Positions 110-18,864 of a stretch of 18,864 bases of DNA are shown here, piece after piece. The position numbers and the translations under genes were made by a program. Location of the stretch: IMG/VR virus record IMGVR_UViG_2693429676_000005. One strand, 5' to 3'. The notes beneath the pieces are model-generated. The model was given only the letters and a program-made list of their open reading frames with translations, did no database searches and had not been told where the DNA came from. Numbering within the stretch: position 1 is the stretch's first letter; each line of letters starts with the position of its first letter. This stretch comes from a virus (Duplodnaviria > Heunggongvirae > Uroviricota > Caudoviricetes).

Positions 110-123
110 ACGCAGGGTGAATT

Positions 124-1091: not shown

Positions 1092-1098
1092 GGACGAT

Positions 1099-1851: not shown

Positions 1852-1864
1852 ACGGAGGTAATAC

Positions 1865-2296
1865 ATGTTTCTGAAAACAGAACAATTTGAATATAACGGT
1901 GTGTCTGTCACGCTTTCCGAATTGTCTGCGCTGCAGCGTATCGAGCATCTTGCCCTCCTGAAACGGCGTGCAGAACAGGCAGAATCCAGCGGCAACCTGC
2001 AGGTAAGCGTGGAAGATCTCGTCAGAACCGGCGCGTTTCTGGTGGCGATGTCCCTGTGGCATAACCATCCACAGAAAACGCAGTCACCGTCAATGAATGA
2101 GGCCGTGATGAAGATAGAGCAGGAAGTGCTCACCACCTGGCCTGCCGATGCCATTGCCCGGGCGGAAGACGTGGTGTTGTGCCTGTCCGGGATGATCGAA
2201 GCTGTTCGTCCGGATACTGATATTACTGAAGTGGCGAAAAATAACACGCTGACTGATGATGATTTTTCTGCGGGAAAGTCTTCGACGGCGAGCTGA
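1865..2296 (+). CDS. G: tail assembly chaperone G
   Basis: 143-aa ORF, MFLKTEQFEYNGVSVTLSELSALQRIEHLALLKRRAEQAE..., matches recalled lambda G. Slippery heptamer GGGAAAG lies at 2272-2278 near its 3' end. Confidence 0.9.
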   Translation: MFLKTEQFEYNGVSVTLSELSALQRIEHLALLKRRAEQAESSGNLQVSVEDLVRTGAFLVAMSLWHNHPQKTQSPSMNEAVMKIEQEVLTTWPADAIARAEDVVLCLSGMIEAVRPDTDITEVAKNNTLTDDDFSAGKSSTAS

Positions 2297-2736
2297 ACTT
2301 TGCCCTCAGACTGGCGCGTGAGATGGGGAGACCCGACTGGCGCGCCATGCTTGCCGGGATGACATCCACCGAATATGCCGACTGGCGCCGTTTTTACCGC
2401 ACGCATTATTTTCAGGATACCCAGCTGGATATGCATTTTTCCGGGCTGACGTACGCTGTACTCAGCCTGTTTTTTTGCGATCCGGATATGCATCCCTCTG
2501 ATTTCAGTCTGCTTGTCCCCCGGCATGAGGAAGAGCAGGTGGAGAGGCCGGATGAGGACAAAATGCTGATGCAGAAAGCGGCAGGACTTGCCGGAGGCGT
2601 CCGGTTCGGTGGGGACGGAGGGCGCGATATTTTATCGTCTGCGGATGTGGCGGATGTCATGGTGGATGATGCCGCATTAATGATGGCTTCAGCGGGGATT
2701 CCGGGAGGTGTGAGATATGTCCCAGCCGGTTGGTGA
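2272..2736 (+). CDS. T: tail assembly protein T, made as a G-T fusion by -1 programmed frameshift
   Basis: Frame 1 is open from the slippery site and reads KVFDGELNFALRLAREMGRPDWRAMLAGMTSTEYADW..., matching recalled lambda T. It has no start codon or RBS of its own until M at 2323, and is -1 relative to G. Confidence 0.8.
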   Translation, partial: GKVFDGELNFALRLAREMGRPDWRAMLAGMTSTEYADWRRFYRTHYFQDTQLDMHFSGLTYAVLSLFFCDPDMHPSDFSLLVPRHEEEQVERPDEDKMLMQKAAGLAGGVRFGGDGGRDILSSADVADVMVDDAALMMASAGIPGGVRYVPAGW

Positions 2737-5307
2737 TCTTGTTATTGACCTGAGTCTGGATGCTGTCCGTTTCGATGAGCAGATGAGCCGGGTAAGGCGT
2801 CATTTTTCAGGTCTGGATACCGACGCCAGAAAAACCGCCAGTGCTGTTGAACAGGGCCTGAGCCGCCAGGCGCTGGCTGCACAAAAAGCCGGGATTTCCG
2901 TCGGGCAGTATAAAGCGGCCATGCGAACCCTGCCCGCACAGTTTACGGATATCGCCACGCAGCTTGCCGGTGGTCAGAATCCCTGGCTGATCCTGCTGCA
3001 ACAGGGCGGTCAGGTGAAGGACTCCTTCGGCGGGATGATCCCCATGTTCAGGGGGCTTGCCGATGCGATCACCCTGCCGATGGTCGGGGTCACCTCGCTG
3101 GCGGTGGCGACAGGTGCACTGGTGTACGCCTGGTACCAGGGAGATTCCACGCTTTCAGCGTTTAATAAAACCCTGGTTCTTTCCGGTAATCAGTCCGGAC
3201 TGACTGCCGATCGTATGCTGACTCTCTCAAGAGCCGGGCAGGCAGCAGGGCTGACGTTTAACCAGGCGAGAGAGTCACTGGCAGCCCTGGTGAATGCCGG
3301 TGTGCGTGGTGGTGAACAGTTTGATGCCATCAACCAGAGTGTCGCGCGTTTTGCGTCTGCATCCGGTGTGGAGGTGGATAAAGTCGCTGAAGCCTTCGGG
3401 AAGCTGACCACTGACCCGACGTCGGGACTGATGGCGATGGCGCGCCAGTTCCGTAACGTGACGGCAGAGCAGATTGCGTATGTTGCACAGCTGCAGCGTT
3501 CCGGAGACGAGGCCGGGGCATTGCAGGCGGCGAACGATATCGCCACGAAAGGCTTTGATGAGCAGACCCGTCGCCTGAAAGAAAACATGGGAACACTGGA
3601 GACCTGGGCGGATAAAACAGGGAAGGCATTCAAATCGATGTGGGATGCCATTCTGGATATCGGTCGTCCGGAATCCTCAGCGGATATGCTCGCCAGTGCG
3701 CAGAAGGCATTTGATGAGGCGGATAAAAAATGGCAGTGGTACCAGAGTCGGAGCCAGCGCCGCGGTAAAACCTCCTCTTTCCGGGCCAACCTTCAGGGCG
3801 CATGGGATGACCGGGAAAATGCCCGTCTGGGTCTGGCAGCGGCAACGCTGCAGTCGGATATGGAAAAAGCCGGTGAACTGGCGGCAAGGGACAGGGCTGA
3901 GCGTGAGTCGTCACAGCTGAAGTATACCGGAGAGGCGCAGAAGGCGTATGAGCGCCTGCTGACGCCACTGGAGAAATATACCGCCCGGCAGGAAGAGCTG
4001 AATAAGGCCCTGAAAGACGGGAAAATCCTGCAGGCGGATTACAACACGCTGATGGCGTCGGCAAAAAAGGATTATGAGTCGACGCAGAAAAAGCCGTCCG
4101 GTGTGAAGGTGTCTGCCGGTGAGCGCCAGGAAGACCAGGCGCATGCAGCCCTGCTGGCGCTTGAAACTGAGCTCAGGACGCTGGAGAAGCACAGCGGTGC
4201 GAATGAAAAAATCAGCCAGCAGCGCCGTGATTTATGGAAAGCGGAAAATCAGTATGTGGTCCTGAAAGAGGCCGCCACGAAACGGCAGTTATCTGAGCAG
4301 GAAAAATCCCTGCTGGCCCATGAGAAAGAAACGCTGGAGTACAAACGCCAGCTGGCTGAGCTGGGCGACAAGATTGAACACCAGAAACGGCTGAATGAGC
4401 TGGCACAGCAGGCGGCGCGGTTTGAACAGCAGCAGAGCGCGAAGCAGGCGGCAATCAGCGCAAAAGCCCGCGGACTCACCGACCGTCAGGCGCAGCGGGA
4501 GTCGGAAGAGCAGCGCCTTCGTGAGGTGTACGGTGATAATCCGGCTGCGCTGGCGAAGGCCACATCTGCACTGAAGAACACCTGGTCTGCGGAGGAGCAG
4601 CTTCGTGGAAGCTGGATGGCCGGGATGAAGTCCGGCTGGGGCGAGTGGGCGGAAAGTGCGACGGACAGTTTTTCGCAGGTTAAAAACGCGGCCACGCAGA
4701 CCTTTGACGGTATTGCACAGAATATGGCAGCGATGCTGATCGGCAGCGAACAGAACTGGCGTGGTTTCACCCGTTCTGTGCTGTCCATGCTGACAGAGAT
4801 TTTTCTGAAGCAGGCGATGGTGGGGATAGTCGGGAGTATCGGCAGCGCCATTGGCGGTGCTTTCGGTGGTGGTGCGTCTGCCTCCACGGGGACGGCCATT
4901 CAGGCTGCGGCGGCGAACTTCCATTTCGCGACCGGGGGATTTACGGGGACGGGGGGTAAATATGAACCTGCGGGGATTGTTCATCGCGGGGAGTTTGTCT
5001 TCACGAAGGAGGCGACCAGCCGGATTGGTGTCGGCAATCTGTACCGCCTGATGCGGGGCTATGCGGAAGGTGGTTATGTCGGCGGTGCCGGAAGTCCGGC
5101 GCAGATGCGGCGGGNNNNNNNNNNNNNNNNNNNNNAGGCATTAATTTTAATCAGAACAATCACGTGGTGATTCAGAACGACGGCCCCAACGGGCGGGCAG
5201 GGCCGCAGCTGATGAAAGCGGTGTATGAGATGGCCCGCAAGGGGGCACAGGATGAACTCCGGCTGCAGTTGCGTGATGGCGGTATGTTATCAGGGAGCGG
5301 TGGATGA
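2717..5307 (+). CDS. H: tail tape measure protein H (interrupted by a 21-N scaffold gap at 5115-5135)
   Basis: Long ORF starting MSQPVGDLVIDLSLDAVRF; start overlaps the T stop. After the N run the protein continues in another frame (GINFNQNNHVVIQNDG...LRDGGMLSGSGG) to TGA at 5305-5307, which overlaps the M start. The frame change means the N-run length is not the true gap length. Confidence 0.88.
5115..5135. other. scaffold gap (21 N) inside H
   Basis: Run of n in the sequence; reading frame differs on the two sides. Confidence 0.95.
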
Positions 5308-5633
5308 AAACCTTTCGCTGGAAAGTGAAGCCGGATATGGAGGTGAACTCGCAGCCATCGGTGCGTGAAGTGCGTTTTGGTGACGGGTACTCACAGCGTA
5401 TGGCGGCAGGGCTGAATGCTGACCTGAAAACATACAGGGTGACGCTTTCCGTGACCCGGGAGGAGGCCCGGCATCTGGAAGCGTTCCTGGCAGAGCACGG
5501 TGGCTGGAAGGCATTTTTGTGGAAGCCACCCTATGCATACCGGCAGATAAAGGTGACCTGTGCCGGGTGGTCTGCGCGGGTCGGGATGTTGCGCGTTGAG
5601 TTCAGCGCGGAGTTTAAGCAGGTGGTGAACTGA
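5304..5633 (+). CDS. M: minor tail protein M
   Basis: 109-aa ORF, MKTFRWKVKP...RVEFSAEFKQVVN, matches recalled lambda M. ATG overlaps H stop (ATGA). Confidence 0.93.
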   Translation: MKTFRWKVKPDMEVNSQPSVREVRFGDGYSQRMAAGLNADLKTYRVTLSVTREEARHLEAFLAEHGGWKAFLWKPPYAYRQIKVTCAGWSARVGMLRVEFSAEFKQVVN

Positions 5634-6331
5634 TGCAGGATATTCGCGAAGAAAGTCTGAACGAGTCGGTTAAGTCAGAGCAGTCACCGCGGGTGGTACT
5701 CTGGGAAATCGACCTGACGGTACAGGGTGGTGAGCGGTATTTTTTCTGTAATGAGCTGAATGAAAAAGGGGAGCCGGTCACCTGGCAGGGGCGTAAGTAT
5801 GAGGCATACCCGATTGACGGCAGCGGCTTTGAGATGAACGGCCGGGGCAGCAGTGCCAGACCGTCGCTGACGGTGTCCAATCTGTTCGGTCTGGTCACCG
5901 GGATGGCGGAAGACCTGCAGAGTCTGGTGGGGGCCACGGTGGTCCGCCGCCGGGTGTATGCCCGTTTTCTGGATGCGGTGAATTTCGTTGCGGGCAATCC
6001 GGAGGCGGACCCGGAGCAGGAGCTGAGTGACCGCTGGGTGGTGGAGCAGATGTCGCAGCTGACAGCCATGACGGCCTCGTTTGTGCTGGCTACACCGACC
6101 GAGACGGACGGGGCGCTGTTTCCCGGTCGCATCATGCTGGCGAACACCTGTATGTGGGATTACCGGGGAGATGAATGCGGGTATAACGGTCCTGCGGTGG
6201 CGGATGAGTTCGACAACCCCACCACGGATATCCGTAAGGACAGATGCAGCAAGTGCATGCGCGGGTGTGAACTGCGCAGGAATGTCGGCAATTTTGGCGG
6301 TTTCCTTTCCATTAATAAACTTTCGCAGTAA
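5633..6331 (+). CDS. L: minor tail protein L (tail tip, Fe-S cluster cysteines)
   Basis: 232-aa ORF, MQDIREESLNE...NVGNFGGFLSINKLSQ, matches recalled lambda L, including the C-terminal cysteine cluster (CMWDYRGDECGY...CSKCMRGC). Confidence 0.93.
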   Translation: MQDIREESLNESVKSEQSPRVVLWEIDLTVQGGERYFFCNELNEKGEPVTWQGRKYEAYPIDGSGFEMNGRGSSARPSLTVSNLFGLVTGMAEDLQSLVGATVVRRRVYARFLDAVNFVAGNPEADPEQELSDRWVVEQMSQLTAMTASFVLATPTETDGALFPGRIMLANTCMWDYRGDECGYNGPAVADEFDNPTTDIRKDRCSKCMRGCELRRNVGNFGGFLSINKLSQ

Positions 6332-6341
6332 ATCCCGGTTT

Positions 6342-7085
6342 ATGACACAGACTGAATCAGCGATTCTGGCACATGCCCGGCGGTGTGCGCCTGCGGAGTC
6401 GTGCGGCTTCGTGATAAGCACGCCGGAGGGGGAGCGGTATATCCCTTGTGTGAATATTTCCGCAGAGCCGGAGGCGTATTTTCGTATCGCACCGGAAGAC
6501 TGGCTGCGGGCAGAGATGCAGGGGGAGATTGTGGCACTGGTCCACAGTCATCCCGGTGGGCTGCCCTGGCTGAGCGAGGCTGACCGGCGGTTGCAGATAA
6601 AAAGCGCACTGCCCTGGTGGTTGGTCTGCCGGGGTGACATTCACAAATTCCGCTGTGTGCCACATCTGACAGGACGGCGCTTTGAGCACGGGGTGACGGA
6701 CTGTTACACGCTGTTCCGGGATGCTTATCATCTGGCGGGGACTGAAATGCCGGATTTTCATCGCGAGGATGACTGGTGGCGCAACGGTCAGAACCTTTAC
6801 CTGGACAATATGGCGGTCACCGGCTTTTACCGGGTGCCCCTGTCCTCTGCACAGGCGGGCGATATTCTGCTGTGCTGCTTTGGTGCTTCGGTACCGAACC
6901 ATGCCGCCATTTACTGCGGCAACGGTGAGCTGCTTCACCATCTGCCTGAACAACTGAGTAAACGGGAGAGGTATTCCGAAAAATGGCAACGACGAACGCA
7001 TTCAGTCTGGCGTCACCGCCACTGGCACGCATCTGCCTTCACGGGGATTTACAACGATTTGGCCGCCGCCTCAGCCTGTATGTGA
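6342..7085 (+). CDS. K: tail tip assembly protein K (JAMM/MPN plus NlpC/P60 domains)
   Basis: The ORF-track frame is open from 6081, but the lambda-K-like N-terminus MTQTESAILAHARRCAPAESCGF starts at ATG 6342, just after the L stop. JAMM motif HSHPGGLPWLSEAD (H-x-H-x7-S-x2-D) is visible, and an NlpC/P60-like Cys/His pair (GVTDCYTLF ... NHAAIY). 3' end overlaps I by about 100 nt. Confidence 0.85.
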   Translation: MTQTESAILAHARRCAPAESCGFVISTPEGERYIPCVNISAEPEAYFRIAPEDWLRAEMQGEIVALVHSHPGGLPWLSEADRRLQIKSALPWWLVCRGDIHKFRCVPHLTGRRFEHGVTDCYTLFRDAYHLAGTEMPDFHREDDWWRNGQNLYLDNMAVTGFYRVPLSSAQAGDILLCCFGASVPNHAAIYCGNGELLHHLPEQLSKRERYSEKWQRRTHSVWRHRHWHASAFTGIYNDLAAASACM

Positions 7086-7663
7086 ACACGGCAGCGGAAG
7101 CCATTCGCGCCCTGTCGATGCAGATGCCGGGCTTTCGCCGTCAGATGAACGAAGGCTGGTACCAGATACGTATTGCCGGTTATGACACGGCACCGGAGGC
7201 GGTGTACGCCCGTCTTCACGAACAGCTGGGTGAGGGAACGGTCATCCACATTGTGCCGCGACTGGCCGGGGCCGGAAAGGGTGGACTGCAGATTGTGCTG
7301 GGGGCGGCAGCCATCGTGGGCTCTTTCTTCACTGCCGGGGCATCAATGGCGTTATGGGGTTCAGCCCTGGCAGCCGGTGGTTTTTCTGCCACCACGATGC
7401 TGTTTTCACTTGGAGCCAGCATGATTCTGGGCGGTGTGGCCCAGATGCTGGCCCCGAAGGCAAAAACACCGGATTACCGCGCAACGGATAACGGCAGACA
7501 GAACACGTACTTTTCCTCACTGGATAACATGATTGCCCAGGGGAACCCGATGCCGGTGCCTTACGGGGAAATGCTGGTTGGCTCCCGCCGTATATCCCAG
7601 GACATCAGCACCCGTGATGAAGGCGGGGGCGGAAAGGTCGTGGTTATCGGGCGGCAGGGGTAA
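6983..7663 (+). CDS. I: tail tip assembly protein I
   Basis: 226-aa ORF; ARICLHGDLQRFGRR...YQIRIAGYD...NTYFSSLDNMIAQGN...VVVIGRQG matches recalled lambda I. Confidence 0.9.
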   Translation: MATTNAFSLASPPLARICLHGDLQRFGRRLSLYVNTAAEAIRALSMQMPGFRRQMNEGWYQIRIAGYDTAPEAVYARLHEQLGEGTVIHIVPRLAGAGKGGLQIVLGAAAIVGSFFTAGASMALWGSALAAGGFSATTMLFSLGASMILGGVAQMLAPKAKTPDYRATDNGRQNTYFSSLDNMIAQGNPMPVPYGEMLVGSRRISQDISTRDEGGGGKVVVIGRQG

Positions 7664-7671
7664 AAAGAATA

Positions 7672-7767
7672 AAAAAATCCCGCAGTGATCGCGGACAGGA
7701 ACTGCGGGAGAGTTACGAAGATTAAGTGTAAGGAATTATTCTTATATCACGACAAAAAAATTAACGC
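7672..7767 (-). ncRNA. candidate small RNA (about 95 nt) in the I-J intergenic insert
   Basis: - strand promoter (-35 TTCACA, 16-bp spacer, perfect -10 TATAAT at 7779-7774) followed about 100 nt downstream by the intrinsic terminator at 7679-7708. No ATG-initiated ORF in the interval. Prediction from sequence only. Confidence 0.35.
7679..7708 (-). terminator. intrinsic terminator for leftward transcription (hairpin then U-tract)
   Basis: Stem CCCGCAGT (7679-7686) pairs with ACTGCGGG (7701-7708). On the - strand the hairpin is followed by TTTTTTTATTCTTTTT (complement of 7661-7678). Confidence 0.6.
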
Positions 7768-7773
7768 AGAGAA

Positions 7774-7801
7774 ATTATACGCGCCACAGTCAGTTTGTGA
7801 A
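7774..7801 (-). promoter_or_regulatory. sigma70-type promoter on - strand
   Basis: - strand reads TTCACA (7801-7796), 16 nt, TATAAT (7779-7774). Confidence 0.5.
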
Positions 7802-7874
7802 AATGTGAAGATATTCAGAATTTTTATGCCATTACCGGTTTTAACCAACAGGATTATCGGTGGGCATGAAAGAA

Positions 7875-7902
7875 AACCCCGGTATCTGCTGATACCGGGG
7901 TT
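7875..7902. terminator. GC-rich perfect hairpin with T-rich flanks on both strands (bidirectional terminator-like)
   Basis: AACCCCGGTATC / tgct / GATACCGGGGTT, 12-bp stem. Followed by TCTCTTT on + and TTTTCTTTC on -. Confidence 0.45.
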
Positions 7903-8006
7903 TCTCTTTAGCATGGCAGAAATGTGTTTCATGCTTTTCGGGCGAAGGATATCCGACTTCTGTACGGAATGGCAAGTGGCGGTTAATTTATTCAGGGGAA
8001 GGCTGT

Positions 8007-10635
8007 ATGGGAAAAGGTGGCGGTAAGGCACACACGCCTCGTGAGGCGAAGGATAATCTCAAATCCACGCAGATGATGAGCGTGATTGATGCGATTGGTG
8101 AGGGACTGATAGAAGGTCCGGTGAAGGGACTGCAGAGTATCCTGGTGAACAAAACCCCGCTGACGGACACGGACGGTAATCCCGTGATACACGGTGTGAC
8201 GGCGGTCTGACGCGCCGGGGAGCAGGAGCAGACACCACCGGAAGGCTTTGAGTCCTCCGGTGCTGAAACCGGACTGGGCGTGGAAGTGACGAAGGCAAAA
8301 CCGGTGACGCGCACCATTACGTCCGCGAACATTGACCGCCTGCGGGTTACCTTCGGGGTGCAGTCACTGGTGCAGACCACGTCAAAGGGTGACCGAAACC
8401 CGACATCCGTCCGCCTGCTGATTCAGTTACAGCGTAACGGTAACTGGGTGACAGAAAAGGATGTCACCATTAACGGCAAGACCACCTCGCAGTTTCTGGC
8501 GTCGGTGATTCTGGATAATCTGCCTCCCCGTCCTTTTAACATCCGGATGGTCCGGGAGACAGCGGACAGCACCACGGACCAGCTGCAGAATAAGACGCTG
8601 TGGTCGTCATACACCGAAATCATCGATGTGAAACAGTGCTACCCGAACACGGCCATTGTGGGGCTGCAGGTGGATGCGGAGCAGTTCGGCGGCCAGCAGA
8701 TGACGGTGAACTACCATATCCGCGGTCGCATCATCCAGGTGCCGTCAAACTATGACCCGGAAAAACGCACGTACAGTGGTATCTGGGACGGTAGCCTGAA
8801 ACCGGCATACAGCAACAATCCGGCCTGGTGTCTGTGGGACATGCTGACTCACCCGCGCTACGGCATGGGAAAACGTCTGGGGGCGGCGGATGTGGACAAG
8901 TGGGCGCTGTATGCCATCGGGCAGTACTGCGACCAGACGGTCCCGGATAGTTTCGGGGAGACCGAGCCGCGGATGACCTTCAATGCGTACCTGGCACAAC
9001 AGCGTAAGGCATGGGACGTGCTCAGTGATTTCTGCTCGGCGATGCGCTGTATGCCGGTATGGAACGGCCAGACGCTGACGTTTGTTCAGGACCGCCCGTC
9101 GGATGTGGTGTGGCCGTACACCAACAGCGATGTGGTGGTGGATGATAACGGCGTGGGTTTCCGCTACAGCTTCAGTGCCCTGAAGGACCGGCACACGGCG
9201 GTGGAGGTGAATTATACCGACCCGCAGAACGGCTGGCAGACCTCCACGGAACTGGTGGAAGACCCGGAAGCCATACTGCGCTACGGACGCAACCTGCTGA
9301 AGATGGACGCGTTCGGCTGTACCAGCCGCGGTCAGGCCCACCGTGCCGGACTGTGGGTGATAAAGACCGAACTGCTGGAAACGCAGACGGTGGATTTCAC
9401 GCTCGGGTCTCAGGGGCTGCGGCACACACCCGGTGACATCATTGAAATCTGTGATAACGACTATGCCGGGACCCTGACCGGCGGACGTGTCCTGTCCATT
9501 GATGCTGCCACCCGCACTCTGACGCTGGACCGTGAAGTGACACTTCCGGAGACCGGTGCCGCCACGGTGAACCTGATTAACGGCAGCGGTAAGCCGGTGA
9601 GTGTGGACATCACCGAACACCCCGCGCCGGACCGGATACAGGTCAGTACCCTGCCTGATGGTGTGGAGACATACGGGGTGTGGGGACTCTCCCTGCCGTC
9701 ACTGCGCCGTCTCCTGTTCCGCTGTGTCTCCGTCCGGGAAAACACGGACGGCACCTTTGCCATCACGGCGGTGCAGCACGTACTGGAAAAAGAAGCCATC
9801 GTGGATAACGGTGCCCGCTTTGAGCCGCAGTCAGGTTCCCTGAACAGCGTCATCCCACCGGCAGTGCAGCACCTGACGGCCAGTATCTGGCGCAGGCGAA
9901 ATGGGACACGCCGCGGGTGGTGAAGGGTGTGCGCTTCAGTCTGCGCCTGACCAGTGGTAAGGGAACGGATGCCAGACTGGTGACCACCGCCATCACCGCA
10001 GACACGGAGCACCGTTTCAGCGGCCTGCCGCTCGGGGAATACACCCTGACGGTGCGGGCGATAAACAGCTATGGCCAGCAGGGTGAACCTGCCACCACCA
10101 CCTTCCGGATTGCCGCACCGGCAGCACCGTCGCGGATTGAGCTGACGCCGGGCTATTTTCAGATAACCGCCACGCCGCATCTTGCGGTTTATGATCCGAC
10201 GGTACAGTTTGAGTTCTGGTTCTCGGAAAAGCGGATTGCGGATATCAGGCAGGTTGAAACCACAGCACGCTATCTTGGCACGGCGCTGTACTGGATAGCC
10301 GCCAGTATCAATATCAAACCGGGCCATGATTATTACTTTTATATCCGCAGTGTGAACACCGTTGGCAAATCGGCATTCGTGGAGGCTGTTGGTCAGCCGA
10401 GTGATGATGCATCCGGTTATCTGGATTTTTTCAAAGGCGAGATAGGGAAAACCCATCTGGCTCAGGAGCTGTGGACGCAGATTGATAACGGTCAGCTTGC
10501 GCCTGACCTGGCTGAAATCAGGACGTCCATTACGGATGTCAGCAATGAAATCACGCAGACCGTCAATAAGAAACTGGAAGACCAGAGTGCGGCAATTCAG
10601 CAGATACAGAAGGTTCAGGTTGATACAAATAATAA
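8007..10635 (+). pseudogene. J: tail tip / host-specificity protein J, 5' and central part, disrupted by in-frame TGA (8208-8210) and a frameshift near 9875
   Basis: MGKGGGKAHTPREAKDNLKSTQ... matches recalled lambda J N-terminus. The same frame resumes after the TGA (RAGEQEQTPPEGFESSG...TRTITSANIDRL) and runs to 9923. Homology then continues in frame 2 from about 9875 ([20 protein letters not shown], cf. lambda GEYQVLARWDTPKVVKGV). Central FN3-like region present ([16 protein letters not shown]). Confidence 0.85.
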
Positions 10636-11078
10636 NCCCGACGGTACAGTTTGAGTTCTGGTTCTCGGAAAAGCGGATTGCGGATATCAGGCAGGTTGAA
10701 ACCAGCGCCCGCTATCTTGGCACGGCGCTGTACTGGATAGCCGCCAGTATCAATATCAAACCGGGCCATGATTATTATTTTTACGTTCGCAGTGTGAACA
10801 CCGTTGGCAAATCGGCATTCGTGGAGGCTGTCGGTCGGGCGAGCGATGATGCGGAAGGTTACTTGGATTTTTTCAAAGGAGAGATAGGGAAAACACATCT
10901 GGCTCAGGAGCTGTGGACGCAGATTGATAACGGTCAGCTTGCGCCTGACCTGGCTGAAATCAGGACGTCCATTACGGATGTCAGCAATGAAATCACGCAG
11001 ACTGTCAATAAGAAACTGAAAGACCAGAGTGCGGCAATCCAGCAGATACAGAAGGTTCAGGTTGATACAAATAATAAT
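10196..11078. repeat. two tandem, about 96%-identical copies (10196-10635 and 10638-11078) of a J internal segment, separated by a single N
   Basis: Both copies start CCGACGGTACAGTTTGAGTTCTGGTTCTCGGAAAAGCGGATTGCGGATATCAGGCAGGTTGAAACC and end GTTGATACAAATAATAA, with scattered substitutions. Probably an assembly join of two alleles. Confidence 0.8.
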
Positions 11079-11900
11079 CTGAACAGCATGTGGGCTGTGA
11101 AGCTGCAACAGATGAAGGACGGACGCCTTTATATTGCGGGTATCGGTGCCGGTATTGAGAATACGCCAGCAGGAATGCAGAGTCAGGTGCTGCTGGCGGC
11201 AGACAGGATTGCGATGATTAATCCTGCGAATGGCAACACAAAGCCGATGTTTGTTGGTCAGGGCGATCAGATATTCATGAACGACGTGTTCCTGAAACGC
11301 CTGACGGCTCCCACCATTACCAGCGGCGGTAATCCTCCGGCATTTTCCCTGACACCGGACGGAAAACTGACCGCTAAAAATGCAGATATCAGTGGCAGTG
11401 TGAATGCGAACGCCGGGACGCTCAACAATGTCACAATTAATGAGAACTGTCAGATTAAGGGGAAACTGTCAGCCAACCAGATTGAAGGCGATATAGTCAA
11501 AACAGTGGGTAAGGCTTTTCCGCGGGACTCCCGGGCACCGGAGCGGTGGCCATCAGGGACCATTACCGTCAGGATTTATGACGATCAGCCTTTTGACAGG
11601 CAAATTGTTATTCCGGCGGTGGCATTCAGCGGCGCTAAACATGAGCGGGAGAATAACGATATTTATTCGTCATGCCGCCTGATAGTACGGAAAAACGGTG
11701 CTGAAATTTATAACCGTACCGCGCTGGATAATACGCTGATTTACAGTGGTGTTATTGATATGCCAGCTGGTCGCGGCCACATGACGCTGGAGTTTTCGGT
11801 GTCAGCATGGCTGGTGAATAACTGGTATCCCACAGCAAGTATCAGCGATTTGCTGGTTGTGGTGATGAAGAAAGCCACCGCAGGCATCAGTATCAGCTGA
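10638..11900 (+). CDS. J: J 3' portion, allele A (receptor-binding C-terminus ending ...[10 protein letters not shown])
   Basis: Frame 0 from 10638 reads [21 protein letters not shown]...[54 protein letters not shown]..., which matches the recalled lambda J C-terminal region. Stop at 11898-11900. Confidence 0.7.
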
Positions 11901-11919
11901 ATTTTATAACCCATATACG

Positions 11920-11946
11920 GGCGCCAGAAATGGCGCCTTTTTTATT
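11920..11946 (+). terminator. intrinsic terminator after J allele A
   Basis: GGCGCC / agaaat / GGCGCC followed by TTTTTTTATT. Confidence 0.65.
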
Positions 11947-11967
11947 GCAGAAAAGCGAGAGGTAATT

Positions 11968-12014
11968 ATGCGTAAAGTTTGTGCAGCCATTTTGTCCGCA
12001 GCCATCTGTCTGTC
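11968..12014 (+). other. lom: lom 5' fragment (allele A), cut off by NNNN at 12015-12018
   Basis: ATGCGTAAAGTTTGTGCAGCCATTTTGTCCGCAGCCATCTGTCTGTC encodes MRKVCAAILSAAICL, the same signal-peptide start as the complete lom at 12995, with 3 nucleotide differences. Confidence 0.6.
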
Positions 12015-12018
12015 NNNN
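12015..12018. other. scaffold join (4 N) between lom 5' fragment and J allele B
   Basis: NNNN joins two unrelated sequence contexts (lom start, then J internal sequence). Confidence 0.9.
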
Positions 12019-12924
12019 AAACTGGAAGACCAGAGTGCGGCAATTCAGCAGATACAGAAGGTTCAGGTTGATACAAATAATAACCTGAACAGCATGTGGG
12101 CTGTGAAGCTGCAGCAGATGCAGGACGGACGCCTTTATATCGCGGGTATTGGTGCCGGTATTGAGAACACCCCTGACGGCATGCAGAGTCAGGTGCTGCT
12201 GGCGGCGGACAGGATTGCGATGGTTAATCCTGCGAATGGCAACACAAAACCGATGTTTGTTGGTCAGGGCGATCAGATATTCATGAACGACGTGTTCCTG
12301 AAACGCCTGACGGCCCCCACCATTACCAGCGGTGGAAATCCATCGGCATTTTCCCTGACTCCGGACGGAAAGCTGACCGCTAAAAATGCGGATATCAGTG
12401 GCAGTGTGAATGCGAACGCCGGGACGCTCAACAATGTCACGGTAAATGAAAACTGTACGATTAAGGGCATGCTGGAGGCGACTCAGGTCAGAGGTGACTT
12501 CGTTAAAGCTGTATCCAAATCATTTCCGAAACAGGCTGGTACGTGGGGTAACACGGAAACACCAAACGGGACGGTTACAGTCACCATAAGCGATGATCAT
12601 AACTTTGACCGCCAGATTATTATTCCGCCCATTATTTTTAACGGTATAGCGTATGACGATCCGGGGAGCGGAAATAACCCAGGAGGCACGCGATACACGG
12701 GTTATGGTTTTGAAGTTCGCAAAAACGGCGTATTAATCGCATCCAGAGAAACTAAAGGTGCCATTCCCGGTAGTTACAGTGCAGTTATTGATATGCCTAG
12801 TGGTGGTGGTAGCGTCACTCTGGAGTTTAAGATTTTCCAGAAAGGCAATCAGGGGGCAGGCAATATCACCGACTGTACGGTGATTGTGACCAAAAAAGCG
12901 GCTTCCGGCATCAGTATTCGTTGA
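12019..12924 (+). CDS. J: J 3' portion, allele B (distinct receptor-binding C-terminus ending ...KKAASGISIR); likely the true continuation of J from 10635
   Basis: 12019-12083 is identical to 10571-10635, so the two pieces overlap as unitigs. Downstream reads [24 protein letters not shown]...[53 protein letters not shown]..., then a C-terminal about 140 aa unrelated to allele A. Stop at 12922-12924. Confidence 0.75.
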   Translation, partial: KLEDQSAAIQQIQKVQVDTNNNLNSMWAVKLQQMQDGRLYIAGIGAGIENTPDGMQSQVLLAADRIAMVNPANGNTKPMFVGQGDQIFMNDVFLKRLTAPTITSGGNPSAFSLTPDGKLTAKNADISGSVNANAGTLNNVTVNENCTIKGMLEATQVRGDFVKAVSKSFPKQAGTWGNTETPNGTVTVTISDDHNFDRQIIIPPIIFNGIAYDDPGSGNNPGGTRYTGYGFEVRKNGVLIASRETKGAIPGSYSAVIDMPSGGGSVTLEFKIFQKGNQGAGNITDCTVIVTKKAASGISIR

Positions 12925-12946
12925 AATATTTATAACCCCAATAAAT

Positions 12947-12973
12947 GGCGTCAGGAATGACGCCTTTTTTATT
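12947..12973 (+). terminator. intrinsic terminator after J allele B
   Basis: GGCGTCA / ggaa / TGACGCC followed by TTTTTTATT. Confidence 0.65.
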
Positions 12974-12994
12974 GCAGAAAAGCGAGAGGTAATT

Positions 12995-13594
12995 ATGCGT
13001 AAAGTTTGTGCAGCCATTTTGTCCGCAGCCATTTGCCTGGCCGTATCCGGTGCGCCTGCATGGGCGTCTGAACATCAGTCCACACTGAGCGCGGGGTATC
13101 TTCATGCCCGTACGAACGCTCCCGGCAGCGATAATCTGAACGGGATTAACGTGAAATACCGTTATGAGTTTACGGACGCGCTGGGGCTGATTACGTCCTT
13201 CAGTTATGCCAATGCTGAGGATGAGCAAAAAACGCACTACAGCGATACCCGCTGGCATGAAGATTCCGTGCGTAACCGCTGGTTCAGCGTGATGGCGGGG
13301 CCGTCTGTACGCGTGAATGAATGGTTCAGCGCGTATGCGATGGTGGGTGTGGCTTACAGCCGTGTGTCGACTTTCTCCGGGGATTATCTCCGCGTAACTG
13401 ACAACAAGGGGAAAACGCACGATGTGCTGACCGGAAGTGATGACGGTCGCCACAGCAACACGTCTCTGGCGTGGGGGGCTGGCGTGCAGTTTAACCCGAC
13501 CGAATCCGTGACCATTGACCTTGCTTATGAAGGTTCCGGTAGTGGTGACTGGCGAACGGATGCATTTATTGTTGGTATCGGATACCGTATCTGA
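12995..13594 (+). CDS. lom: outer membrane protein Lom (Ail/Lom/PagC family beta-barrel; prophage moron)
   Basis: 199-aa ORF with signal peptide MRKVCAAILSAAICLAVSGAPAWA. Motifs GINVKYRYEFTD, SVMAGPSVRVNEWFSAYAMVGVAYSR and C-terminal AYEGSGSGDWRTDAFIVGIGYRI match recalled lambda Lom. Position after J as in lambda. Confidence 0.9.
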   Translation: MRKVCAAILSAAICLAVSGAPAWASEHQSTLSAGYLHARTNAPGSDNLNGINVKYRYEFTDALGLITSFSYANAEDEQKTHYSDTRWHEDSVRNRWFSVMAGPSVRVNEWFSAYAMVGVAYSRVSTFSGDYLRVTDNKGKTHDVLTGSDDGRHSNTSLAWGAGVQFNPTESVTIDLAYEGSGSGDWRTDAFIVGIGYRI

Positions 13595-13698
13595 CAACAG
13601 ACGCCGATTTATCTTCTGTAAATATTGTTATGATACGCAGGTTCATCCACCTTATGGGGTGAACTGCGTTTGAGGAAACGTAAAGTTACACTGTCCTG

Positions 13699-13735
13699 AA
13701 GCCCGTGGCGTCACTGCTGCGGGCTTTTTTTATTG
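13699..13735 (+). terminator. putative intrinsic terminator after lom
   Basis: AAGCCCG ... CGGGCTT stem with 14-nt loop, followed by TTTTTTTATT. Confidence 0.45.
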
Positions 13736-13745
13736 GTGGAAAAGT

Positions 13746-16502
13746 ATGACAGTAAAAATTTCTGGCGTGCTTAAAGATGGCACAGGAAAACCAGTACAGA
13801 ACTGCACCATTGTGCTGAAGGCCAGACGAACCAGCAGCACGATGGTGGTGAACACGGTGGCCTCTGAAAATCCGGATGAAGCCGGACGTTACAGCATGGA
13901 TGTTGAGCATGGTCAGTACAGCGTCACCCTGCTGGTTGAAGGTTTTCCGCCTTCACATGCCGGGACCATTACCGTCTATGAAGGTTCCAGACCAGGTACG
14001 CTGAATGATTTTCTCGGTGCCATGACGGAGGATGATGTCCGACCGGAGGCACTGCGCCGCTTTGAGCAGATGGTGGAAGAGGTGTCACGTAACGCCTCCG
14101 CGGTTGCACAGAATACGGCAGCCGCGAAAAAATCAGCCAGCGAGGCGGCAACTCATGCAACCGATGCTGCAGCCTCAGCACGTGCCGCCAGCACGTCAGC
14201 CGGACAGGCCGCGTCGTCGGCTCAGTCAGCGTCTTCCAGCGCAGGAACGGCATCGACAAAGGCCCGTGAAGCAGCAAAAAGTGCTGCTGCAGAGTCATCA
14301 AAAAGCGCGGCAGCTACCAGCGCCAGTGCCGCGAAAACGTCAGAAACGAATGCCGCAGCATCACAAAAATCGGCAGCCACTTCTGCATCCACAGCGACCA
14401 CGAAGGCGTCAGAAGCTGCCACCTCGGCACGGGGTGCGGCGGCCTCAAAAGAGGCAGCGAAATCTTCAGAAACGAATGCATCATCGAGTGCCAGTAGTGC
14501 AGCTTCCTCGGCAACGGCGGCAGGAAATTCCGCGAAGGCGGCAAAAACGTCCGAGACGAACGCTAAGTCTTCTGAAACAGCAGCGGGACAGAGCGCCTCA
14601 GCTGCGGCAGGTTCAAAAACAGCGGCTGCATTATCTGCCAGTGCCGCGTCAACAAGTGCCGGGCAGGCCTCAGCCAGTGCCACCGCCGCCGGAAAATCGG
14701 CAGAAAGCGCCGCATCATCCGCTTCAACAGCCACAACGAAGGCTGGCAAAGCCACTGAGCAAGCCACTGCAGCAGCGAGGTCTGCTTCTGCAGCAAAAAC
14801 CTCTGAAACAAATGCAAAGACTTCAGCAGACAATGCTGCTTCCTCTAAGGCAGCAGCCGCATCGTCAGCCAGTTCAGCGGCGTCATCGGCATCATCTGCG
14901 TCTGCTTCAAAAGATGAGGCGACCAGACAAGCGTCAGCAGCGAAAGGTAGTGCCACGACAGCAACAACGAAAGCATCAGAGGCGGCAGGCAGTGCGACGG
15001 CTGCATCTCAGAGCAAAGTTGCTGCTGAATCCGCGGCAACGCGCGCCGAGACAGCAGCAAAACGGGCAGAGGATATTGCATCCGCCGTGGCGCTTGAGGA
15101 TGCGAGCACGACGAAAAAGGGGATAGTACAGCTCAGCAGTGCGACCAACAGCACTTCCGAGTCACTGGCGGCAACGCCAAAAGCGGTTAAGGCGGTAATG
15201 GGTGAAACGAACAAGAAAGCGCCCTTAAATAGTCCTGCACTGACCGGAACGCCAACAACACCAACTGCGCGACAGGGAACGAATAATACCCAAATCGCAA
15301 GCACGGCTTTCGTTATGGCTGCGATTGCCGCCCTTGTAGATTCGTCACCTGATGCACTGAACACGCTGAACGAGCTGGCTGCGGCGCTGGGCAACGACCC
15401 GAATTTTGCGACCACCATGACTAACGCGCTTGCGGGTAAGCAACCGAAAGATGCCACCCTGACGGCGCTGGCCGGACTTACTACTGCGGCAGGCAAGTTT
15501 CCGTATTTTACGGGGAATGATGTCGCCAGCCTGGCAACCCTGACAAAAGTCGGGCGGGATATTCTTGCGAAATCGACCGTTGCTGCCGTTATCGAATACC
15601 TCGGTTTACAGGAAACGGTAAACAAGGCTGGTAACGCCGTTCAGCGTTCCGGCGATAAAATGACCGGAGAACTGAAAATTGGCACGGTGAATGCGCTGCG
15701 AATTTTCAATGATACCTTCGGTCTAATTTTCCGTCGTTCAGAAGATTTTCTTCATTTCATTCCGACGGCTGAAGGACAAGGCGAAAACGGTAATATCGGC
15801 CCATTAAGGCCATTCGCTATAAATCTGAGAACAGGTGCTATATCTGTCAGCCACGGGGCCAAAATTAAAGGAGGTCTAGCTATTGGAGCTACTGATAACG
15901 CACTGGGTGAAAACTCCATTGTTCTGGGAGATAACGACACCGGATTTAGGCAAGATGGAGATGGTATTATTAGCTTCTATTCAAATGGTTCGCGCATCGG
16001 ACATATTGATGAGTTAGGATTACATCTTTATAAAGATATTGAATCTAATGGCAGCAATTTTAGATTAAAAAGTAATTACCGCCACCACATTACATTCGCC
16101 AACGAAGACGGAAGAATTCGTATGTTTTTGTGGAAAGATAACGGTGGTGATGGTGTTCATATTAATAACGGTTCAGATGGTGGTGGTGATTTCATTTTTA
16201 AAACAGATGGGGGATTTGCGCTGGGAAGTGGTGCGCAAGTTGCGTCTAGTGGCGATATTTATGGTTCAGTGTGGGAAAACAACTGGTTAAGCACATGGCT
16301 GCATAATCATGTCGTTCGGGATATTCGTCTTGGCAGCATTGAATATAAAAACGTATGGCGCGACTACGGCTTTGGCGATGCGTCAGGTTATGTTTTAACA
16401 GCCGCAATTAACAGCAATGCGGATGATATTGTCGACACTGTTGCCAGAAGGCCAATTCAGAAATTGATTGGGGGAATATGGTACAACGTGGGGAGTGTTT
16501 AA
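13746..16502 (+). CDS. stf: side tail fibre protein Stf (constant N-terminal part plus invertible variable C-terminal part)
   Basis: 918-aa ORF. N-terminus [28 protein letters not shown]...[33 protein letters not shown] is near-identical to recalled lambda Stf, followed by a long Ala/Ser/Thr-rich repetitive shaft (KTSETNA repeats). The region after the crossover site at 15589-15614 is the exchangeable tip. Confidence 0.9.
15589..15614. other. left crossover site for invertase (gix/pix/hix-like, 26 bp), inside stf
   Basis: TTATCGAATACC TC GGTTTACAGGAA. The reverse complement of the right site (18505-18530) is TTATCTAAAACC TC GGTTTACGAGAA, giving 21/26 identity in inverted orientation, two 12-bp half-sites around a 2-bp core. 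Matches the recalled gix pattern. Confidence 0.7.
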
Positions 16503-16503
16503 G

Positions 16504-17031
16504 ATGATGCACCTGAAAAATATTAAGGCCGGGAATCCGAAAACACCGGAACAATACCAGCTAACTAAAAAAGCGGGCGTGGTATGGCTCTTTTGCGAAG
16601 ATGGCAAAAACTGGTATGAGGAACAAAAGAATTTTCAGCCAGACACCATAAAAATTGCTTACGATGAGAACAACATCATCGTTGCTGTCAGTAAAGACGT
16701 TTCAACTATTAATCCTGAAGGGCTAAGCATAGTTGAAGTTCCTGATATTACGGCAAATCGTCACGCAGACAATAACGGAAAATGGATGTTTCTGGATGGT
16801 AAAGTAGTAAAGAGGGAATATACAGAACAGGAACTGCAACAACAGGCCGAATCACAAAAGGCCGCATTGCTTTCCGAAGCTGAATCAGTCATCCAGCCGC
16901 TGGAACGCGCTGTCAGGCTGAATATGGCAACAGACGAGGAACGCACACGACTGGAAGCATGGGAACGCTACAGTGTTCTGGTCAGCCGTGTGGATACGGC
17001 AAATCCTGAATGGCCACAAAAGCCTGAATAA
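16504..17031 (+). CDS. tfa: tail fibre assembly chaperone Tfa (partner of + orientation fibre tip)
   Basis: Starts 1 nt after the stf stop: [41 protein letters not shown]... This is a typical Tfa N-terminus and is paralogous to the inverted copy at 17060-17593. Confidence 0.88.
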
Positions 17032-17036
17032 AAATT

Positions 17037-17056
17037 AAGGCCCGATAGCGGGCCTT
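17037..17056. terminator. hairpin between convergent tfa genes (terminator, U-tract on - strand)
   Basis: AAGGCCCG / atag / CGGGCCTT. On the - strand it is followed by AATTTTTATT. Confidence 0.6.
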
Positions 17057-17059
17057 CTC

Positions 17060-17593
17060 TCATTCTGGTTGTTCGGGAAACGTTACTGGCAGGCTGGAGG
17101 TGTCTGTGGATTCAACCTTCTGCGCATAGAGCATCCACTCGGTTAATTTTTGTTTATTCTCATCGGAAATGATGCCCAGCTGTAGCTGAGAGTCCCACAG
17201 CTGGGTTTTATCCCTGACGAGCTGCAGCAGGCTCTGCTTTTCATTTTCCGCTTGTTGCCTTTGCTCTTCCTCGGTATAAGTTCGCTTTATCACCGCACCA
17301 TCTTTGAACATCCAGTTGCCCGAAATATCAGCCCGGCGATTTGCTGTAATATCAGGCAACTCAACGACACTTAAACCTTCTGGATTAATTGCTGATACAT
17401 CCTTGTCTATAGCAATAATTATTCCCTCAACTGTGTAAGCCAGTTTTATTGTATCCTCCTGAAAGTTTTTTAATTCCTCATGCCAATTTTTTCCATCTTC
17501 GGACCATAACCAGATAACATCAAAATTCTTTGTTAGCTGGTATTGTTCAACGGTTTTTGGATTACCTGCGACAATGTTTTTTAAATGCTGCAT
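17060..17593 (-). CDS. tfa: tail fibre assembly chaperone Tfa' (alternative, inside invertible segment)
   Basis: 177-aa [43 protein letters not shown]..., with a conserved N-terminal about 95 aa shared with the + strand Tfa and a different C-terminus. Confidence 0.88.
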
Positions 17594-17595
17594 GA

Positions 17596-18522
17596 TTATA
17601 CCTGCGATACGTTATACCATGTTCCGTTAATTAACTTTTGTATTGGTCTGAATACTGCCGGATCATCACCATCGACTTCACCGATAATACCAAGCCCCGT
17701 GATTACATGGCCTGATTTTTCATACATCACGCCTTTCTTCATGGTCTAAACAACTCGTGTGCCAAGTCTGACATCTCTCACATAGCGGGAATCAAAGTTA
17801 CCGTAATCCGAGGGATTAACACGTCCCGTAATATTTATGGTTTTATTACTTTGAATGCTTCCGGAGACAAAGCGCATAACATGGACGTTATTAGCATAAA
17901 CATCCAGATTACCATCGCCTTTTTGTTTAAAGCCCGTGTCATTATCACCCAATACAATCGAATTACCGCCAAGAGCACTGGATGTTCCGATACCCAGTGC
18001 ACCATTCAGTTGACCACCAGATAACGGCAGTGCACCAACATCTCCTGCTGAAGGTTTTCTGGTGGTGTAAAATTCGGACCAGTCGGCTTCAAAACCATAA
18101 CCATCACGGGCTGAACGATAAAAAATACCGCCATTTTTATAATTAATCCGAAACTGAGCTGCAGGACAACTTCCTTCTCCCATATAAAAATGAATAATTA
18201 ACGTTGATGCACCACTAATAGTTGCGTTATAGGCTCCGCTACTCCAGTTCCATCCAACTGCTTTATCATTCGCAACGGTGCTTCCTGTTTTCCCTAAGGC
18301 AAACGCACCAACATGACTTGCTTTTAATGTGATATCGGAGGAACCATCAAAAGCCACATTGCTTATTTTCCTGGCAGTTTTTAATTTTGCAGCTGTAGAA
18401 GCATTGCCGGATAGTTCACCAGAAAGGCCACCGCTGAATGTTTGTCGATTAGTCCAGGTATTCGCTGTACTGAGTAACGGTATTTTCTCCCCGCTTGTGC
18501 CGAGTTCTCGTAAACCGAGGTT
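17596..18522 (-). pseudogene. stf: alternative tail fibre variable C-terminus (Sv'), no own start codon, interrupted by in-frame TAG at 17746-17748
   Basis: - strand frame is open from just inside the right crossover site (NLGLRELGTSGEKIPLLSTANTWTNRQTF...) with no ATG. Contains [21 protein letters not shown], paralogous to Stf [21 protein letters not shown]. After the TAG the same frame continues for 48 codons ending [18 protein letters not shown], paralogous to the Stf C-terminus [18 protein letters not shown]. Confidence 0.75.
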
Positions 18523-18530
18523 TTAGATAA
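18505..18530. other. right crossover site for invertase (gix/pix-like, 26 bp)
   Basis: TTCTCGTAAACC GA GGTTTTAGATAA, close to the recalled Mu gix sequence TTCCTGTAAACCGAGGTTTTGGATAA. Lies directly upstream of the invertase gene, as in Mu, P1 and e14. Confidence 0.75.
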
Positions 18531-18584
18531 TGGCGGTTTCTGGCCTGCATGGCATGATTTGTGCTTTTGGACGGGAGATTCAGC

Positions 18585-18864
18585 GTGCTGATTGGCTATG
18601 TAAGGGTATCAACAAATGACCAGAATACAGACCTGCAACGAAACGCTCTTGTTTGTGCAGGATATGAACAAATATTTGAAGATAAATTAAGCGGAACAAG
18701 GACAGGCCGACCTGGATTAAAACGTGCTTTAAAGCGCCTTCAAAAAGGTGACGCACTGGTTGTCTGAAAACTGGACTGACTGGGTCACTGTATGCGGCAT
18801 CTTGTCGTGCTGGTGGTGGAAGCCTAGAAAAAGTATCGGGTGTTGCTGAACCGTGTTGATACAT
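18585..18864 (+). pseudogene. pin: Pin/Gin/Hin-family serine DNA invertase, 5' part; in-frame stops after codon 60; 3' end beyond window
   Basis: From GTG 18585: (M)LIGYVRVSTNDQNTDLQRNALVCAGYEQIFEDKLSGTRTGRPGLKRALKRLQKGDALVV, near-identical to recalled Pin/Gin N-termini including the catalytic Ser in VRVSTNDQ. TGA then replaces the conserved W of VVWKLDRLGR (18765-18767), with a second TGA (18777-18779) and a TAG (18825-18827) in the same frame. Confidence 0.8.

Follow-up and report, generated by a model that had tools for sequence, protein, structure and literature searches.

Two J receptor-binding tips laid end to end in a draft lambda-like prophage are very probably a scaffolding artefact

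The window considered here is the whole 18,864-nt stretch of Caudoviricetes DNA catalogued as IMG/VR record IMGVR_UViG_2693429676_000005, most of which aligns to the tail, lom, stf and tfa genes of strain cM8a, a closed genome. J, the gene for the tail tip attachment protein, is written here in three pieces separated by two short runs of N (Table 1), with lom and stf downstream. The preliminary description of the sequence had pointed to both runs, and a scan for non-ACGT characters adds a further run of 21 N at 5115-5135. J starts at 8007 and no earlier, which corrects its previous placement. Compared with the J gene of VR50, it carries a nonsense codon (TGA at 8208-8210) and, at 9873, a deletion of 22 bp, both lesions common to the sister assemblies L225, L226, L227, L048 and L202, and the gene is a pseudogene. 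As written, its pieces lie in frames 2, 0 and 1, the frame changing across both N joins, and with these shifts and the two lesions there is no intact full-length J frame that ends in the C-terminal domain PF12421. The structure as written has no function, since all three J pieces are truncated or out of frame.

Table 1. Features of the J-lom region, in window coordinates.
Feature	Position	Strand	Basis or remark
J (tail tip attachment protein), 5' three quarters, first contig, pseudogene	8007-10635	+	tblastn searches with J of VR50 and of LD93-1; VR50 J aligned as DNA
42 identical nt common to the two prophage types; contig 1 switches from P1-type to P2-type	~10133-10176	+	alignment with relatives
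Left anchor copy 1, 67-nt exact repeat common to alleles A and B	10196-10262	+	= 10638-10704
Allele B part 1: J codons, second Ig-like domain and start of tail-tip domain	10263-10635	+	contiguous with part 2 in other contigs
Single-N scaffold join	10636	.	at a site where A and B differ: T (11078) against C (12084)
Middle contig, allele A, 1378 nt	10637-12014	+	J 3' end, terminator, lom'; Pfam Ig_J_second, Phage_Tail_Tip, Ig_GpJ_C
Left anchor copy 2	10638-10704	+	inside middle contig
Allele A J stop	11898-11900	+	within middle contig
Terminator-like hairpin, allele A	11919-11938	+	hairpin prediction
Right anchor copy 1, 72 nt	11934-12005	+	= 12961-13032 exactly
lom' fragment, 47 nt	11968-12014	+	end of middle contig
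NNNN scaffold join	12015-12018	.	character scan
65-nt exact overlap with contig 1 end (10571-10635)	12019-12083	+	flanking contigs abut here without the middle contig
Allele B part 2: J 3' end, divergent C-terminal receptor-binding domain	12084-12924	+	Pfam Phage_Tail_Tip, Ig_GpJ_C
Allele B J stop	12922-12924	+	end of allele B part 2
Terminator hairpin, after allele B	12947-12964	+	hairpin prediction
Right anchor copy 2, 72-nt exact repeat	12961-13032	+	spans the T-tract of the terminator, the RBS and the first 38 nt of lom
lom (Ail/Lom outer-membrane protein), complete	12995-13594	+	Pfam PF06316, E 1e-125; PGAP annotation of homologues

The middle contig (allele A) and the sequence around it (allele B) carry two versions of the J 3' end. 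The preliminary description had recognised in the former a second J 3' end with its own terminator and 47 nt of lom, and had given the protein endings as GISIS (A) and GISIR (B); the feature coordinates and translation bear this out. Its figure of about 96% identity between the copies is too high for the DNA, which is about 94% identical (95.0% in the conserved part, with 22 mismatches in 440, and then 92.7%, with 28 in 384). The proteins agree at 263 of 275 residues (95.6%). The divergent region comprises the last ~150 residues. The final ~140 residues had been described as completely different and are in fact divergent yet clearly homologous, with 62 of 141 identical, and both tips match Pfam PF12421 (Ig_GpJ_C), at 133.9 bits for allele A and 92.2 bits for allele B against a cut-off of 26.2 bits. 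Across the NNNN join the Lom start codon is connected in frame to the J C-terminus, giving a false ORF of 318 aa (11968-12924). An Rfam search of the window gave no match.

Comparing both tips with known proteins, a check that the preliminary description had proposed, matched each to known phage J tips. The two align to residues 980-1131 of lambda J (PDB 8iyk) with E values of 1.8e-32 and 9e-22. Tip A is 95-97% identical to its counterparts in phages 204576, JLK-2012 and vB_EcoS-640R1 and 94% identical to those of Stx2a phages, and tip B is 97-99% identical to those of Evi, 2B8, PhiR29_1, cdtI, 2851 and WGPS6, allele B part 2 reaching 99.4% against the J tips of Evi, 2B8 and PhiR29_1. Both tips are ordinary variants, known from before, of the C-terminal receptor-binding domain of lambda J. 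Among relatives typed by experiment, only phi330, which depends on OmpC (PMC12502783), could be tied in. Tips A and B are 65% and 44% identical to its receptor-binding domain, which is too distant, and we therefore rejected the transfer of its receptor to either tip.

The geometry of the two joins points towards assembly rather than biology. The 65-nt identity between the end of the first contig and the start of the third is exact, as had been noted, and its inner side is bounded by N in both copies. An exact repeat of 67 nt opens the middle block, and another, of 72 nt, stops 9 nt short of the block's end; both repeats are common with the alternative path. After the left anchor the block is colinear with allele B part 1 followed by the sequence from 12084 onwards. 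Gap characters, not sequence, stand at both of its joins. When the block is removed, the flanks meet in the exact 65-nt overlap and the result matches uninterrupted J genes elsewhere. The overlaps noted are 65, 67 and 72 nt, and what we say of the assembler and its k-mer size goes as far as these lengths.

Relatives of the window allow the two alleles to be assigned to their flanks, for which we call this prophage P1 type and the allele-B prophage P2 type. The allele A contig is 100.000% identical to L225 over 1378 nt and 99.7-99.9% identical to L048, L202 and L227, and in all four it sits between the same flanks, which are 96-99.7% identical to those of the window (for L227 only the upstream flank counts, its allele A being followed by an N join). 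L225, L202 and L048 each have a single J-lom-stf arrangement with zero N in the fetched stretch, and the lom and stf downstream in the window are 99.5-99.9% identical to those of the allele-A relatives L225 and L202. These comparisons make it probable that, in this strain, the allele joined physically to these flanks is A. Allele B tells a different story. The preliminary description had taken J up to 10635 to continue naturally at 12084, and 10263-10635 plus 12084-12960 indeed runs without a break, at 100% identity, in at least six other contigs (L238, L237, L236, L231, L081 and L087); counting matches of 99.8-100%, the path is uninterrupted in nine. The 1 kb upstream in the allele-B contigs is 66-69% identical to the window and the downstream sequence 62-67% over 1 kb, or 76-92% in three with less than 1 kb comparable. 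Since tip B is contiguous elsewhere with flanks only ~65-69% identical, it belongs to a different prophage. The earlier interpretation of an assembly bubble stands, with one correction: judged by relatives, it is the middle block that is native to these flanks and allele B that is the intruder.

The passage between the two types can be placed quite closely. The window tracks L225, L048 and L227 to ~10132, and from ~10176 it tracks L238 and L237 at three informative sites, the same P2-type bases being present in the sister contig L226; the return to P1 type lies within the right anchor at 12961-13032. The first of these switches lies upstream of the region to which attention had been drawn (10196-12924), inside only 42 identical bases and without any N, and is a point against the artefact reading. 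A graph built with large k would not merge in 42 identical bases. This leaves two options: a smaller k or a consensus step in the assembly, or a real short conversion tract in the strain's prophage.

These switches also bear on the possibility that the same artefact arose from a mixed sample, made up of two strains or of subclones, one of which had exchanged its J tip with another resident prophage through recombination. If P1 had gained tip B by recombination, the result would be the pattern seen, with allele B set within P1-type flanks through clean, N-free switches at 42-nt and 72-nt identical stretches and an allele-A contig 100% identical to the P1 tip of its clone-mates. A deterministic assembler running B through the P1 flanks would, however, produce the same pattern, and tip B is elsewhere always found in a J and lom context ~65-69% identical to that of the window. 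Several lambdoid prophages per genome are moreover the norm, with a median of 2-3 J-tip loci per E. coli genome and up to 14-15, and pieces of lom and stf specific to P2 occur in the sister scaffolds, which indicates that the lineage has a complete second prophage. We consider a mixed sample unlikely and infer that alleles A and B reside in two prophages of one chromosome, not in a mixed culture.

A more radical alternative, also raised in the preliminary description, is that the sequence is to be taken literally, as a real tandem partial duplication in which J-3'(A), terminator and lom' lie within J and form a silent spare receptor-binding cassette, exchangeable by homologous recombination. 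The sequence is, after all, written so, the direct repeats of 65-72 nt around the pieces would allow recombination, and J-3'/lom units stand in tandem in other draft scaffolds too. Closed genomes tell against this. Among 5,426 complete E. coli genomes, no place covered 80% or more of a query made by concatenating the A tip with the B tip (maximum 56%), and in the closed genomes cM8a and WS3294A the window maps to a single J-lom locus, spanning 17.5 kb compared with 18.83 kb in the window. This exact clone is absent from the closed E. coli genomes, where the J 5' part finds its best match at 97.7% identity, in a sequence free of the 22-bp deletion; the N-free clone-mates L048, L202 and L225 are, like cM8a and WS3294A, single-copy.

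The draft examples of tandem units fare no better on inspection. Sister drafts with the same J nonsense codon and 22-bp deletion, and others, join the pieces across single Ns in differing and even reversed orders: L227 reads A, N and then another J ending in B, whereas L209 reads B with 180 nt of lom, N and then A from position 11079, and similar joins occur in L242, L244/L234, L231 and L069. That several sister scaffolds put A and B close together could be read as a recurrent real adjacency, and is a second point against an artefact, but their orders conflict. The sister contig L226/L209 has two copies that overlap, with A and B swapped in phase in a complementary manner, a hallmark of arbitrary bubble resolution. 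Two scaffolds were considered as N-free examples of tandem tips. L231 has three J-3'/lom units in a seemingly N-free tandem, yet single Ns occur at 7274 and 10455, exactly on the unit boundaries, and closed genomes match only a 3.2-kb span of its 6.7-kb array. L037 carries the final ~340 nt of J with the terminator twice and with no N, and between the two lies not a spare cassette but an insert of 2.45 kb, which by sequence resemblance to IS66 would encode IS66-type transposition proteins. Every tandem J-3'/lom example found in drafts has N exactly on its unit boundaries. With both junctions of the window consisting of N that coincides to the base with the repeat edges, the reading frames broken in an already defective J and neither a recombinase nor an arrangement of inverted repeats around the block, we regard a spare cassette as extremely improbable. 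Hardly more credible is the broader proposition that the duplication is physically real, or real in a subpopulation, a defective lambdoid prophage keeping or acquiring a second J cassette from a co-resident prophage by exchange at the 42-72-nt anchors; if true, a single isolate would directly show resident prophages swapping their tips.

We conclude that the two J tips laid end to end are, in all likelihood, a scaffolding artefact from two lambda-like prophages, a reading drawn purely from the join geometry and sequence comparison. The sequenced DNA would have held two such prophages, their J genes having in common a conserved 3' third and J-lom junction and differing in the C-terminal receptor-binding domain. 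Both alleles would then have formed a bubble in the graph of the short-read assembly, between the left and right anchors, and the scaffolder would have put both branches in one line rather than choosing one. Allele B would have been split into two contigs overlapping by 65 nt, with the 1378-nt allele-A contig dropped between them and residual gaps of 1 and 4 N left behind. With alleles of two prophages laid end to end across N-filled joins in this way, the arrangement would not be a real tandem cassette. The linearised bubble suggested by the preliminary description is supported by the geometry, the closed genomes, the N-free relatives and the orders in the sister scaffolds.

The J tandem is almost certainly not a real feature, and the case matters mainly as a warning. 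Draft E. coli and Shigella prophage scaffolds repeatedly show J-3'/lom tandems across one or a few Ns, and five further such scaffolds were found in IMG/VR. These joins create false gene models, such as the Lom-J ORF described above, which may enter protein databases and host-range predictions.

Genuine alternative receptor-binding ends are known from the inversion systems of Mu (Gin and the G segment), P1 (Cin) and e14 (Pin). The J/lom block differs from these in having direct repeats, no crossover sites, no recombinase and N at its junctions, and an invertible receptor switch at J was rejected. Downstream of J the window does contain an inversion switch, at stf/tfa (15585-18534); it has inverted repeats of 30 nt and a remnant of the resolvase family, and it lies inverted relative to strain cM8a. 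Crossover-like inverted repeats occur only there, at 15585-15614 and 18505-18534, and the J/lom block is unrelated to this switch. A diversity-generating retroelement was likewise rejected: the A/B mismatches fall in all base classes, not at template adenines, and the annotated stretch of cM8a to which most of the window aligns has no reverse transcriptase gene. Both tips match the gpJ C-terminal receptor-binding domain (PF12421; lambda J ~980-1131; PDB 8iyk and 8xcj) above the curated cut-off, and a terminator and then lom follow each of them as they follow J in lambda, although neither tip is the LamB-binding allele and the gene that carries them here is a pseudogene. That J receptor-binding domains of lambdoid phages are exchangeable modules with conserved sequence at their borders is already well known. 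The locus resembles a bubble linearised by a short-read scaffolder, with which it has in common the N joins, the overlapping flanks, the repeats at the block ends, conflicting orders among drafts and single-copy closed genomes; nothing substantive sets it apart, the one allele switch in a 42-nt identity simply being shorter than the other overlaps.

The interleaved J ends are likely to be a scaffolding artefact, in which the J alleles of two prophages were linearised across N joins; counting the mixed-sample variant together with this two-prophage form, an artefact of scaffolding is highly probable. The preliminary description of the interleaving was accurate apart from slightly different percentages and the relation of the tips. 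The 65-nt identity that it reported is exact, with Ns bounding both inner sides, and once the middle block (a second J 3' end with its terminator and a partial lom, lom'; allele A) and the Ns are taken out, the contigs on either side share an overlap of exactly 65 nt. The proposed continuation of J from 10635 into 12084 (allele B) also held, as the joined sequence (10263-10635 plus 12084-12960) is 100% identical and unbroken in six other contigs (L238, L237, L236, L231, L081 and L087). The middle block starts with 1 base and then an exact copy of the left anchor, is thereafter colinear with 10263-10635 and 12084 onwards, and ends 9 nt past the right anchor. Both its ends are set by exact repeats common to the allele B path, and the two paths are the branches of a graph bubble, anchored by 67 nt on the left and 72 nt on the right.

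Coordinates of the features in the window
Feature	Coordinates	Gene	Details
N runs	5115-5135; 10636; 12015-12018	H (first run)	n=3; 21 N, 1 N and 4 N
I-J spacer	7664-8006		343 nt
Unannotated ORF	7685-8026		113 aa, GTG start
J start	8007	J	
Nonsense codon	8208-8210	J	TGG to TGA, W68*
22-bp deletion	9873	J	between 7-bp direct repeats CTGACGG
Left anchor, first copy	10196-10262	J	67 nt
65-nt identity	10571-10635 and 12019-12083	J	exact
Middle block	10637-12014	J, lom'	allele A
Right anchor	11934-12005 and 12961-13032	J terminator, lom	72 nt exact; terminator tail, RBS, first 38 nt of lom
Spurious ORF	11968-12924	lom'/J	318 aa
Invertible tail-fibre segment	15585-18534	stf/tfa	30-nt inverted repeats at 15585-15614 and 18505-18534
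Truncated resolvase-family ORF	18561-18767		68 aa, PF00239 N-terminal part only

The genes of the window make up the tail half of a lambda-like prophage; 35-10635 aligns at 98% to the closed E. coli genome cM8a, whose PGAP annotation at this locus names tail proteins, U, V-like, G, T, tape measure, M-like, L, K (C40 peptidase), I, gpJ, Lom, Stf and Tfa. Both J ends match the Pfam families Phage_Tail_Tip and Ig_GpJ_C, the latter being the C-terminal receptor-binding domain of J; lom matches Ail_Lom, and translation bears out the protein ends GISIS (A) and GISIR (B), each before a stop. Near-identity of the alleles was rightly noted, but the figure of about 96% gives way to 22 mismatches over the initial 440 nt and 28 over the 384 nt that follow, with 263/275 residues identical in the conserved part. 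Likewise the last 140 or so residues do diverge (about 55% nucleotide identity over the last ~450 nt of J), but they are not completely different: the tips are divergent homologues (62/141 residues identical), both aligning to lambda J residues 980-1131 of solved structures. Terminator-like hairpins follow both J ends, and the 47 nt of lom ascribed to the block are the 38 nt within the repeat plus 9 nt.

Whilst the two-allele bubble stands, the roles of the alleles need correction. Three IMG/VR contigs (L048, L202 and L225) match the window flanks at 98-100% identity with no N in the fetched stretch. In each of them allele A forms the end of a single J, and the lom and stf after it are those of the window, at 99-99.9%; L225 matches the middle block at 1378/1378 positions. 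Nine contigs hold allele B at 99.8-100%, yet in all nine the upstream J is only 66-69% identical to the window, and the downstream DNA 62-67% over 1 kb (76-92% in three with less than 1 kb comparable). Since the flanks match in the A contigs and differ in the B contigs, sequence comparison indicates that allele A is native to the prophage of the flanks (P1) and that allele B is the intruder, from a different lambdoid lineage (P2).

The preliminary description allowed that the arrangement, if real, would be a tandem spare receptor-binding cassette. In the closed genomes VR50 and LD93-1 each allele ends a lone J in the usual way, with lom and stf after it. In cM8a and WS3294A the full window lands on single loci of 17.5 kb, where the middle block and contig 1 (the DNA ending at 10635) fall on the same DNA. 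A query joining the A-specific to the B-specific tip, for which a window-like layout would give about 100% coverage, was never covered by more than 56% in any of 5,426 complete E. coli genomes, so that none came to 80%. A real tandem is very improbable. Geometry, closed genomes, single-copy N-free relatives and conflicting sister layouts agree on a bubble of two related lambdoid prophages.

On this reading the assembly led allele B through flanks of P1 type and set the left-over allele-A contig between the two B contigs. Contig 1 is P1-type to about 10132 (alignment A1), P2-type at three informative sites (about 10176, 10191 and 10195) and 100% P2-type from 10263, placing the left switch within a 42-nt stretch (from 10133) identical in both types; the return to P1-type falls within the 72-nt anchor. 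This short switch region is the one detail that does not fit neatly with a large-k graph, and could come from assembly with a smaller k, from a consensus step or from genuine conversion over a short tract. A sister contig, L226 (2150-2216), has the same three P2-type bases on an otherwise P1-type J after 42 identical nt, which could reflect either genuine gene conversion over a short tract or a deterministic choice made alike in both assemblies.

The J nonsense codon is common to the window, L225, L226, L227 and L048, and the 22-bp deletion to these and L202, which begins downstream of 8208 so that the stop codon site is not covered. Because they share these lesions, the five contigs represent the same clone as the window, and because the lesions recur across IMG/VR assemblies they are real lineage markers rather than errors; neither occurs in any closed E. 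coli genome searched. The J of P1 is a pseudogene. Sisters that also hold allele B have it beside allele A across single Ns, in differing layouts: L227 reads P1 J(A)-lom', N, then a different J (mid-part 76% identical) ending in B, and L209 has the reverse order, J...B-lom (180 nt), N, then A from 11079 on-lom-stf. In a contig made of L226 and L209, 10306-10440 is present twice, in overlapping copies whose A/B phase patches complement each other, exactly what arbitrary resolution of successive bubbles yields. P1 and other prophage pieces are also interleaved across N joins in drafts L242, L244/L234, L231 and L069. As layouts differ between drafts, the tangle follows from the assembly process rather than from any structure conserved in the genome.

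Tandem J-3'/lom units joined by 1-3 Ns recur in IMG/VR prophage contigs (L231, L242, L244/L234, L069, L227 and L209), L231 (IMGVR_UViG_2698536366_000004, 4500-13840) having three such units with Ns at 7274 and 10455; these belong to the same artefact class as the window. Separately, in L037 (IMGVR_UViG_2526164665_000041, 666-3688) J and lom lie 2.45 kb apart. This interval has ORFs with an apparent resemblance to IS66 transposition proteins, and on its two sides ~340 nt of the J end plus terminator are duplicated, with no N.

As written, the three J pieces lie in frames 2, 0 and 1, and from the lom' ATG the reading frame runs on across NNNN into the J C-terminus (301 aa), so a gene caller would output a Lom-signal/J-tip fusion protein. 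With the J 5' part already inactivated, no working switch is possible at the J/lom block. Elsewhere, the 21-N run in the tape-measure gene H stands where cM8a has just 4 nt (CGGA); that makes the gap 17 nt too long, and a literal reading would shift the H frame. The spacer between tail assembly gene I and J, covered by an ORF with no Pfam match, is likewise unannotated in VR50, cM8a and WS3294A.

Comparison of the tips found known phage relatives, and neither tip is the lambda LamB allele. Phage phi330 has been shown experimentally to need OmpC (PMC12502783), but its tip shares only 65% identity with A and 44% with B, too distant for its receptor to be transferred to either. Each tip is an already known allele: A is 95-97% identical to the tips of phages 204576, vB_EcoS-640R1 and JLK-2012, with 94% for many Stx2a phages, and B matches Evi, 2B8, PhiR29_1, cdtI, 2851 and WGPS6 at 97-99% identity. 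The stf/tfa segment, which has tfa genes in opposed orientation as well as an alternative fibre end and is inverted relative to cM8a, is a genuine receptor-end switch of a known kind. Its inverted repeats resemble Gin/Cin/Pin crossover sites (TTCCTGTAAACCGAGG...), and the switch is probably frozen or reliant on an invertase supplied in trans.
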